Source of the DNA: a virus
Lineage: Duplodnaviria; Heunggongvirae; Uroviricota; Caudoviricetes
Direction: 5' to 3' (one strand)
Length of the DNA stretch: 4,144 nucleotides
IMG/VR virus record: IMGVR_UViG_3300029613_000200
Below the pieces are notes generated by a model, which made no database searches, had not been told where the DNA came from, and was given only the letters and a program-made list of their open reading frames with translations. Below are positions 107-3,100 of this stretch, one piece after another. Each line of letters opens with the position of its first letter. The first letter of the stretch is position 1. The position numbers and the translations under genes are program-made.

Positions 107-3100
107 TCAGCTGATACTGATACCTGCTGTGGATTTTTTCATCACCACAACCAGCAGATCGCTGATACTGGTTGTTGGTGTCCAGTTATTCGCTCCTGAT
201 GAAGATACGGTGAATGTCAGTGTCAGCGTCCCCTGTCCGGCAGGCATATCTATAACTGAGGAAAATACGCCCTGAGCATCCGTCGTGGACTGATTAAAAA
301 TCTCCTGACCATTGCGGGTCACTCTTAACCGGCAGGTTGAATACCAGTATGACTGTTGGTTATTACTGTTGAAATTCTCATGCTTACCACCGCGGAATAA
401 CACTGGCGGTATCATGACCTGCCGGTCAAATTTCTGATCATCACTGATTCTTACCGTGATGGTGCCACTGGCATAACTGTTCGTGCGGGGGAAAGACTTG
501 CTGACCGTTTTGACAATATCGCCTTCAATCTGATTGGCTGACAGTTTCCCCTTAATCTGACAGTTCTCATTAATCGTGACGTTGTTGAGCGTCCCGGAGT
601 TCGCATTCACACTGCCACTGATATCCGCATTTTTAGCAGTCAGCTTTCCGTCCGGTGTCAGGGAAAATGCCGGTGGATTTCCACCGCTGGTAATGGTGGG
701 GGCCGTCAGGCGCTTCAGGAACACGTCGTTCATGAATATCTGGTTGCCCTGCGCCACAAACATCGGCGTTTCATTCCCGTTTGCCGGGTCAATAAACGCG
801 ATACGATTGGCGGCAACCAGAAACTGGCTCAGTTTGCCTTCCTCCGTGTCCTCCATGCTGAGGCCAATACCCGCGACATAATGTTTGCCGTCTTTGGTCT
901 GCTCAATTTTGACGCCCCACATGGCATTCCATTTATCGTTAGCGTCCTTCCACTCTTTCGAAAACTCATCCAGTCTGCTGGCGTTATCCTCCGTCAGATC
1001 AACTTTTTCCAGCAGCTCTTTACCGAGATGGGATTCGGTTATCTTGCCTTTGAAAAAATCCAGGTAACCTTCCGCATCATCGCTCGCCCGACCGACGGCC
1101 TCCACGAATGCCGATTTGCCAACGGTGTTCACACTGCGGATATAAAAGTAATAATCATGGCCCGGTTTGATATTGATACTGGCGGCTATCCAGTACAGCC
1201 CCGTGCCAAGGTAGCGGGCTGTGGTTTCAACCTGCCTGATATCGGTAATCCGCTTTTCCGAGAACCAGAACTCAAACTGTACCGTCGGATCATAAACGGC
1301 AAGATGCGGCGTTGCGGTTATCTGAAAATAGCCCGGCGTCAGCTCAATCCGCGACGGTGCTGCCGGTGCGGCAATCCGGAACGATACCGACGCCGGATCG
1401 CCCTGCTGCCCCCAGGCATTTGCCGCCCGGACTGTCAGCCTGTAGTTCCCCAGCGCCAGTTGCGTGAAGCGGTATGTGGTTTCCGTCGTCCGGGCCGTGC
1501 TGACCAGCCGCTCACTGCCGTCATCCGCTGCCACGGTCAGGCGAAGCATAAAGCTCACGCCCTTCACCACCTTCGGCGTGTCCCAGCGGGCCAGTACCTG
1601 ATACTCCCCGCTGTCTGCGGTGACTTCGGCAGTCAGGTGCTGCACCGCTGGCGGCGTGACACCATTCACCGTGCCGCTCTGGTCGCCGTCAAAGTGCGCC
1701 CCGTTATCCACGATGGCTTCTTTTTCCGGTACATGCTGCACGGCAGTGATGGCATACGTGCCGTCATCGTTCTCACGGATACTCACACAGCGGAACAGGC
1801 GCTGGCGCAACGTCGGCAACTTCAGCCCCCATACGCTGTATCCGGCAACGCCGTCAGGAACACGGCTCACTTTTACCTTCACGCCGTCGGTGACGGACTG
1901 GACCTCCACGCTGACCGGATTGCCACTTCCGTCAACCAGGCTTATCAGCGTGGTACCGGAGGATGGCAGCGTGATTTCACGGTCGAGCGTCAGCGTCCGG
2001 CTCTGGCTGTTCACCGCCAGCACGCGCCCGCCGGTGCTGATACCGGCATAGTCATCATCGCAGATTTCAATGACATCGCCCGGTACATGGCGAAGCCCTT
2101 CAGCACCCACGCTGAAGTCCACGGTCTGCGTTTCCAGCAGCTCCGTTTTAATCAGCCACAGCCCGGCTCGGTGTGCCTGCCCCCGGCTGGTACAGCCAAA
2201 GGCATCCATCTTCGTGACGTTACGACCGTAACGGAGAATGGCCGGCGTGTCCTCCACAAGCTCTGTCGCCGTCTCCCAGCCGTTATCCGGGTCAATCCAG
2301 TTCACCTCAACGGCATTATGGCGGTCCTTCAGGGCGCTGAAGCTGTAGCGGAACGGCGCGCCATCATCCGGCATCACCACATTACTGCGGTTATAGGTCC
2401 ACACCTTATCCGACGGTCGGTCCTGCACGAACGTCAGCGTCTGCCCGTTCCATACCGGCATACAGCGCATCGCCGAGCAGAAATCACTGAGCACATCCCA
2501 CGCCTTGCGCTGTGTGGTCAGGTACGCATTACAGGTGATGCGCGGCTCCGTGCCGCCAAAGCCGTCCGGCACTGACTGGTCGCAGTACTGGCCGATGACA
2601 TACAGCGCCCATTTGTCCACATCCGCCGCACCAAGACGTTTTCCCATGCCGTAGCGCGGGTGGGTCAGCATATCCCACAGACACCAGGCCATGTTGTTGC
2701 TGTATGCTGGTTTTAACGTTCCGTCCCAGATACCGCTGTATTGTCGCGTCTGCGGGTTATAGTTCGACGGCACCTGCAGAATGCGCCCGCGAAGATGATA
2801 ATTACGGCTCACCTGCTGGCTGCCGAACTGCTCCGAATCCACCTGTACGCCGACCAGTGCCGTGTTCGGGTAGCCCTGTTTCACATCGATAATTTCGGTG
2901 TATGACGACCAGAGCGTTTTGTTCTGCAACTGGTCTGTGGTGCTGTCCGGCGTCATTCTGCGCATCCGGATACTGAACGGGCGCGGCGGCAGGTTATCCA
3001 CCACCACCGAGGCCAGATACTGCGAGGTGATTTTGCCCTTAATGGTGATGTCTTTTTCCGTCACCCAGCCACCATTACGCTGTATCTGAACCAGCAGGCG

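Follow-up and report, generated by a model that had tools for sequence, protein, structure and literature searches.

A lambda-type J protein ending in a receptor-binding module of the OmpC-binding class common among Escherichia coli prophages

The tip attachment protein J encoded by the stretch of phage DNA analysed here (4,144 nucleotides from IMG/VR record IMGVR_UViG_3300029613_000200; hereafter, the window) is best read as a modular protein, in which a lambda-type body carries an exchanged, OmpC-binding, Ig-like domain that has moved between J lineages by homologous recombination, a reading to which we assign a probability of about 0.93. The original prediction had singled out a divergent C-terminal module in this protein and interpreted it as a recombinational swap that might have changed the receptor; our analysis confirms what was observed and supports the reading given to it, and all of it is already known. 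Because the module is common and its OmpC-bound structure has been solved, the finding is correct but ordinary.

The window derives from a lambdoid phage or prophage and contains two tail tip genes, I and J, together with the beginning of lom, all of them on the minus strand, as follows.

3566..4144, minus strand: gene I (tail tip assembly protein), with its 5' end beyond the window edge, assigned by synteny and by a translation that aligns to lambda I from residue ~24.
107..3505, minus strand: gene J (tip attachment protein, central tail fibre), intact, 1132 aa, assigned from the list of open reading frames, Pfam matches, and 98% identity to the gpJ of fS58a.
70..89, minus strand: intrinsic terminator in the J-lom spacer, from a terminator scan (8 pairs, 5 of them G-C, then a T-run).
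1..40, minus strand: start of lom, a non-lambda allele, with its ATG at 40, reading MRKLYAAILSAAI... over the first 13 codons before the window edge cuts it.

This arrangement, with I upstream and lom downstream of J, is the K-I-J-lom gene order of the siphophage tail module, and the whole tail module is found in the closest chromosomal match. The spacer between I and J is 60 nt long and holds a hairpin, and the phage 434 record has an annotated terminator at the site equivalent to that between J and lom. The lom start distinguishes the window from lambda, reading MRKLYAAILSAAI in the former and MRNVCIAVAVFAALA in the latter; the stretch at 1..40 is identical in phages phi330, 434, and PhiR29_2, whereas lambda is only ~50% identical there.

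Within J itself, the parts that bear on the argument are these.

587..3505, minus strand: lambda-type J body, residues 1-973, with 97% amino acid identity to lambda J and 29 substitutions.
586..634, minus strand: interval of ~49 nt (residues ~958-973) taken from the DNA alignment to hold the recombination junction.
110..586, minus strand: receptor-binding module, residues 974-1132, of the A8/phi330 OmpC-binding class, 100% identical to PDB entries 9wca and 9wcb.
110..484, minus strand: Pfam domain PF12421 (Ig_GpJ_C), residues 1008-1132, hmmscan E-value 4.8e-36.
472..483, minus strand: loop TNSY, residues 1008-1011, at a 4-residue deletion relative to lambda; phi330 has TSTY.
350..379, minus strand: hairpin, residues 1043-1052, with a 5-residue insertion relative to lambda, equal to phi330 E953-S962.
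176..193, minus strand: loop ANNWTP, residues 1105-1110, beside a 1-residue deletion relative to lambda and identical in phi330.

Six J-specific Pfam domains (FNIII-A_GpJ, Phage-tail_3, Ig_J, Ig_J_second, Phage_Tail_Tip, and Ig_GpJ_C) follow one another in the correct order with E-values of 4e-34 to 6e-42, which is the multi-domain architecture of J, and the body (residues 1-973) comprises the hub domains, the FNIII/Ig domains, the helical shaft, and the central straight fibre. Lambda J (NP_040600, from the reference genome NC_001416; PDB 8iyk, 8xcj, and 8xck), which binds LamB, has the same length of 1132 aa and the same domain architecture. Global alignment of the two proteins bore out the near-identity claimed for the first ~970 residues, giving 97% over residues 1-973 and, per 40 residues, 93 to 100% up to residue 960, 75% at residues 961-1000, and 30 to 47% thereafter. 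The first 975 alignment columns hold only 29 differences, and the first difference in the module is N974 against S974 of lambda. The underlying DNA is 92 to 99% identical to that of lambda in each 150-nt bin over nt 1-2850 of the gene. Closer still is the prophage gpJ of E. coli strain fS58a, which shares 98% of its residues with the window's J over the full 1132 aa, its module being identical to that of the window; an exact protein look-up returned no identical full-length J on record.

At the DNA level, a run of 52 nt identical to lambda (window positions 637-586) is followed by 65 nt (585-521) with 27 mismatches, and nucleotide identity to lambda falls from ~97% to ~50% within about 50 nt, a contrast much larger than chance would produce. 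The sequence of phi330 behaves in the reciprocal manner, joining that of the window at about 634 (its nearest mismatches upstream lie at 635, 638, and 644-647) and remaining nearly identical through the terminator and into lom. Over 586..634, lambda, phi330, and the window are essentially identical, and since lambda matches down to 586 and departs from 585 downward whereas phi330 joins at ~634, the crossover is placed within ~586-634. [quoted passage not shown] The original prediction had bounded the divergent stretch at roughly 107 and 590, but the non-lambda block extends past position 107, taking in the J-lom spacer and the beginning of lom as far as window position 1.

Base composition is a poor guide to this junction. 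The GC content of J is 0.596 over nt 1-2220, 0.521 over nt 2221-2919, and 0.467 in the module (nt 2920-3399; 0.466 over the 481-nt alignment slice), so that the module is, as had been proposed, numerically the most AT-rich part of the gene. The main drop, however, begins ~750 nt upstream of the module, in sequence common to lambda, and the strongest change point falls at residue 726 (window ~1331) in window J and lambda J alike, whereas the step at the junction amounts to only ~5 points, or about 1.8 SE by a binomial estimate. We therefore rejected GC as a marker of foreign origin or of the swap. Among the modules compared, it is lambda's, at 0.543, that is the outlier, those of the window, phi330, 21, 434, and PhiR29_2 all having GC contents of 0.46 to 0.48.

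The module itself (residues 974-1132) can be aligned to lambda J throughout, at 43.6% identity (tblastn), and the landmarks named in the original prediction are where it put them: the motif SGTLNN begins at residue 970, Cys982 is encoded at 560-562 and Cys1058 at 332-334, and DMPAG is retained at residue 1086 (1085 in lambda). It departs from the LamB-binding domain of the lambda class both in this low identity and in its indels at the receptor-facing loops (a 4-residue deletion, a 5-residue insertion, and a 1-residue deletion), which coincide with the TNSY loop, the hairpin at 1043-1052, and the ANNWTP loop, respectively. The match to Ig_GpJ_C passes the gathering threshold comfortably (124.3 bits against a cut-off of 26.2). 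To phage 434 the module is 46.4% identical and to phage 21 81.8% identical, and from phi330 it differs by 2 residues, the TNSY/TSTY loop being the sole place where the two modules differ; phi330 and phage 21 both share the window's hairpin unchanged.

Residues 930-1132 were modelled with AlphaFold2 from a 12-sequence alignment. The mean pLDDT is 71.7, with values of 73 to 96 over the greater part of the receptor-binding domain and a poor prediction for the fibre part, as is to be expected when a trimeric prism is modelled as a single chain. A Foldseek search with this model returned 9wca and 9wcb at 100% identity, followed by the lambda structures 8xck (E = 5e-18) and 8xcj (E = 3e-17), with a TMq of 0.59. 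The module thus keeps the fold of the lambda receptor-binding domain, with which the PF12421 match agrees. The cysteine pair is weak evidence for that fold, because Cys1058 is missing from phage 434. The companion idea, that change is limited to surface loops, is not supported: predicted strands are 41% identical to lambda and the rest of the module 53% (Fisher p = 0.19), which does not fit a scheme of conserved core and variable loops, and the divergence from lambda is domain-wide, extending beyond the loops.

A search of solved structures ties this module directly to OmpC. The last 203 residues of the window's J (930-1132) are 100% identical to the chain named "A8 gpJ 713" in two PDB entries released on 2026-01-28, of which 9wca shows the A8 gpJ713 central tail fibre closed and 9wcb shows it open, with OmpC G17 of E. 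coli EDL933; a literature search turned up no publication that cites either entry. Between residues 713 and ~973, this chain agrees with lambda wherever the window's body is substituted, and because its residues upstream of ~974 are those of lambda, the chain is lambda J 713-973 fused to exactly the module of the window. The name gpJ713 was given by Ge and Wang to their construct of lambda J 713-1132 (PMC11101478). We equate the A8 of the PDB chain with Eligo's A8 on the basis of the shared name and the chimeric architecture.

The function of A8 was described by Brödel et al. (Nature 2024; PMC11338833), who fused natural gpJ C-termini to lambda gpJ in order to retarget particles from LamB to OmpC; the transfer of the module into lambda that had been proposed as an experimental check is, in effect, already published as this chimera. 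[quoted passage not shown] The chimera accepted both the MG1655 and the EDL933 alleles of OmpC and, with suitable side fibres, also worked on Klebsiella pneumoniae ST258; A8, 1A2, or both worked on 21/23 of the OmpC variants tested (PMC11338833). Its receptor-binding module is the same as that of the window, and both are mounted on a lambda-type body. The two differ in that A8 was engineered onto a body identical to that of lambda, whereas the window's J is a natural gene with 29 body differences from lambda, those inside the part covered by the PDB entries including R752, T754, T762, A763, G769, D836, D846, N856, and G864.

Genetic evidence for the same receptor comes from phi330, a long-tailed Stx2a phage that did not lyse the Keio ompC deletion strain but was rescued by Plac-ompC (PMC12502783). 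In the AlphaFold3 model published for phi330, the hairpin E953-S962 lies inside the OmpC barrel and A1015-P1020 lies on its rim, with no OmpC contact predicted for the loop TSTY (PMC12502783). The two predicted contact segments correspond to residues 1043-1052 and 1105-1110 of the window's J and are identical in both phages, their contact roles being those predicted by that model. OmpC binding and OmpC dependence are, then, established for modules identical or nearly identical to this one, which bears out the suggestion of a different receptor, and by analogy with them we infer that the window's phage uses OmpC. The range of OmpC alleles can vary with strain, and in natural hosts infection depends as well on capsule or O-antigen and on the side tail fibres.

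Exchange of the J C-terminus as a module is a textbook instance of lambdoid mosaicism, and the distribution of the module follows that pattern. DNA at window positions 1-700 is 97 to 99.9% identical in many deposited phages, including Salmonella phage SPF_0923, PhiR29_2, 2H10, Turner, vB_EcoS_phi330, and dozens of Stx1a- and Stx2a-converting phages. One phage with the module at 99.9% identity is reported from Salmonella; a literature search for a paper describing the PhiR phages found nothing useful. A set of 5,426 complete E. coli genomes has the module DNA at ≥95% identity in about 1,490 of its records, and many E. coli chromosomes match the whole window at ~97% identity. Among 243 phage records, module identity falls into discrete tiers (44 records at ≥95%, 23 at ~80% [the phage 21 type], 77 at 60 to 80%, and 99 at <60%, including the 434 and lambda types), and the same tiers were seen in a large protein collection.

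Modules and bodies assort in several combinations: the lambda-type body carries at least three modules (those of lambda, 434, and the window), and the window's module is found on at least two bodies, the phi330-type module sitting on a J that is only 76% identical overall, which together substantiate the proposed recombinational swap. The J of phi330 (vB_EcoS_phi330, PV189401, genus Pankowvirus) shares with the window its terminator, its downstream lom allele, and, apart from 2/159 residues, its module; it differs in a 28-residue insertion in the helical shaft and is annotated from an internal Met. Phage 434 (OL657226) combines a lambda-type body and the downstream lom region of the window with a module of another class, whose third loop is longer and in which the second cysteine is missing. 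The receptor of phage 434 is given as OmpC in the literature (PMC12502783, PMC11101478), and as its module class is distant from that of the window and yet OmpC binding, OmpC is used in two distant module classes. The J of phage 21 (OL657228) has hairpin 1043-1052 and ANNWTP loops identical to those of the window, but on a different body segment with insertions of ~63 nt and ~21 nt, and its downstream neighbour is a side-tail-fibre gene instead of lom. We considered the "Phi21" of PMC11336670 as receptor evidence for the phage 21 module and rejected it, since the J of that phage is lambda-like (94% nucleotide identity) and its native receptor is LamB.

Against recombination, it could be argued that rapid point substitution, driven by selection on host range, altered the C-terminus of a lambda-like ancestor in situ, given that the receptor-binding regions of J evolve fast under laboratory selection (PMC11336670) and that the module aligns to lambda along its full length. 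This explanation is effectively refuted by the abruptness of the fall in nucleotide identity over those ~50 nt, by the three indels in the module, by the recurrence of the same module at 97 to 100% nucleotide identity on the otherwise divergent J of phi330, and by the flanking lom allele, which switches along with the module. Nearly as improbable is the proposal that LamB remains a receptor for the module, either by itself or alongside OmpC. Its conserved fold, several retained motifs, and a Pfam domain in common with lambda would agree with such a proposal, and some laboratory-evolved J proteins use several porins (PMC11336670); it is contradicted, however, by phi330, whose failure on the ompC deletion strain occurred in cells still having lamB (PMC12502783), and by A8, which was characterised in lamB-deleted recipients and depends on plasmid OmpC (PMC11338833), as well as by the solved complex, which is with OmpC (9wcb), and by the indels relative to lambda in 3/3 of the receptor-facing loops.

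A more serious alternative, which we consider quite possible though rather more doubtful than even, concerns only which phage is the recombinant: there may have been no swap in the window's lineage, its J being the common natural combination and lambda the recombinant with an unusual LamB-binding module. The high frequency of the module in the complete E. coli genomes, the many chromosomes that match the whole window at 97%, the GC content of 0.46 to 0.48 in the modules of phi330, 21, 434, and PhiR29_2 against 0.54 in lambda, and a downstream lom allele common to 434, phi330, and PhiR29_2 and not to lambda are all in keeping with that history. Frequency and GC alone, however, give no polarity to the exchange. 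Such a history would alter only the past of the module, and not its identity or activity.

Under the preferred reading, in which the OmpC-binding domain was exchanged onto a lambda-type body, residues 974-1132 would constitute an Ig-like receptor-binding domain of the class borne by long-tailed Stx phages and many E. coli prophages, and this domain would bind the trimeric porin OmpC and not LamB. One crossover would have occurred at window ~586-634, where strongly conserved DNA encodes the end of the central fibre, and the other downstream, in or beyond lom, outside the window. Following the opening mechanism described for lambda (PMC11101478), the bottom loops of the trimeric tip would insert into the porin trimer and the base of the domain would spread, new hydrogen bonds would compact and twist the central fibre, and the helical shaft would then flip, the FNIII strings dissociate, and the hub open for DNA ejection. 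That the mechanism is the same as in lambda is presumed by analogy, and the existence of closed-state and open-state entries for A8 gpJ713 fits such two-state behaviour.

Two further ideas, both of which we regard as unlikely, are suggested by sequence comparison. The conserved patch of ~50 to 100 nt, present in 5/5 of the phages, might be retained for more than structural reasons and act, together with the shared downstream terminator and lom region, as a dedicated homology "linker" by which the receptor-binding domain can be exchanged as a cassette. The second idea is that the natural J, with its 29 body substitutions, might differ from A8 in its range of OmpC alleles or across genera.

The module in the window is, in sum, a case of classical lambdoid modular exchange, common and already characterised: it was known genetically from phi330, by engineering from A8 and its use in in-gut DNA delivery, and structurally from 9wca and 9wcb. 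Its value lies in annotation, in that J genes ending in the sequence of this module can be labelled as belonging to an OmpC-binding class, which covers a large fraction of E. coli prophages, including the long-tailed Stx1 and Stx2 phages.

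Non-lambda sequence extends beyond the stop codon of J, the tip attachment protein (central tail fibre) gene at window 107..3505 on the minus strand, across the terminator and into lom, the gene downstream. This flank (window 1-106) is identical to that of phages phi330, 434 and PhiR29_2, and because the divergence from lambda runs on through it, the mosaic block has its right-hand boundary beyond the window edge. Phage 434 has the flank in common with the window, yet its receptor-binding module is different.

A patch of the J body in the first FNIII/Ig domain (window ~1355-1588, J residues ~640-717) shows near identity to phi330, whereas the body around it is much more divergent, with 76% identity overall between the two J proteins; by this comparison, the patch appears to be another small mosaic tract. 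It falls in the highest-GC part of J (0.645-0.66). The strongest GC change point in the gene is at window ~1331 (residue ~726), with a GC content of ~0.60 before it and ~0.50 after, near the join of two Ig/FNIII domains (Ig_J, 610-714, and Ig_J_second, 716-818), and lambda J has its strongest change point at the same position. This suggests an older join in composition near residue ~726, common to the window phage and lambda.

The remaining features of J and its upstream spacer are as follows.

Window 707-802 (J residues 902-933): the peptide that triggers HepS, with the F924 codon at 734-736; identical to lambda.
Window 881-2575, plus strand: a 564-aa open reading frame (ORF) antisense to J.
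Window 2873-2875 (J residue 211): glycine in the window and cysteine in lambda J; one of 29 body substitutions.
Window ~3527-3547, minus strand: between J and the upstream gene I, a G+C-rich hairpin with a trailing T-run (AAACCGCCTGCGGGCGGTTTTGTC).

At residue 211, the J of a prophage in Escherichia coli strain fS58a has cysteine, like lambda and unlike the window. The lambda I-J spacer shows only two base differences from that of the window, and in the records of phages 434 and 21, the site equivalent to the hairpin is annotated as a terminator. The annotation stands there despite the location of the site within the late tail operon.

The antisense frame is open in lambda too, but as the sequences are ~97% identical, this does not constitute independent support for the ORF. 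None of the records examined has an annotated gene at this position, and GC-rich codon usage most likely gives rise to the ORF as a by-product. Annotation of J itself varies: the gene is entered as two overlapping coding sequences in PhiR29_2 (L002, 2198-5594) and from an internal Met in phi330 (L003, 1661-5076), where a "hypothetical protein" spans the N-terminal part. Both splits probably reflect frameshifts or sequencing errors, not genuinely split genes.

Sequences that match the receptor-binding module also occur under other host labels. A 197-aa fragment labeled Pseudomonas aeruginosa (P0102) is 90% identical to it, a label that probably stems from contamination or a mislabeled assembly. 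Phage SPF_0923 (ON032529.1, 22996-23695), recorded from Salmonella sp., has the module with 99.9% nucleotide identity, and its match to the whole window is at 96%. This raises the question of whether this module class may recognize Salmonella OmpC too or the host given in the record is not to be trusted.

The prophage-encoded anticodon nuclease HepS is triggered by a 32-residue peptide of the J central fibre in which F924 is critical (PMC13043305). The window's identity to lambda across this peptide includes F924, and from the published work, activation of HepS by the window J would be expected.
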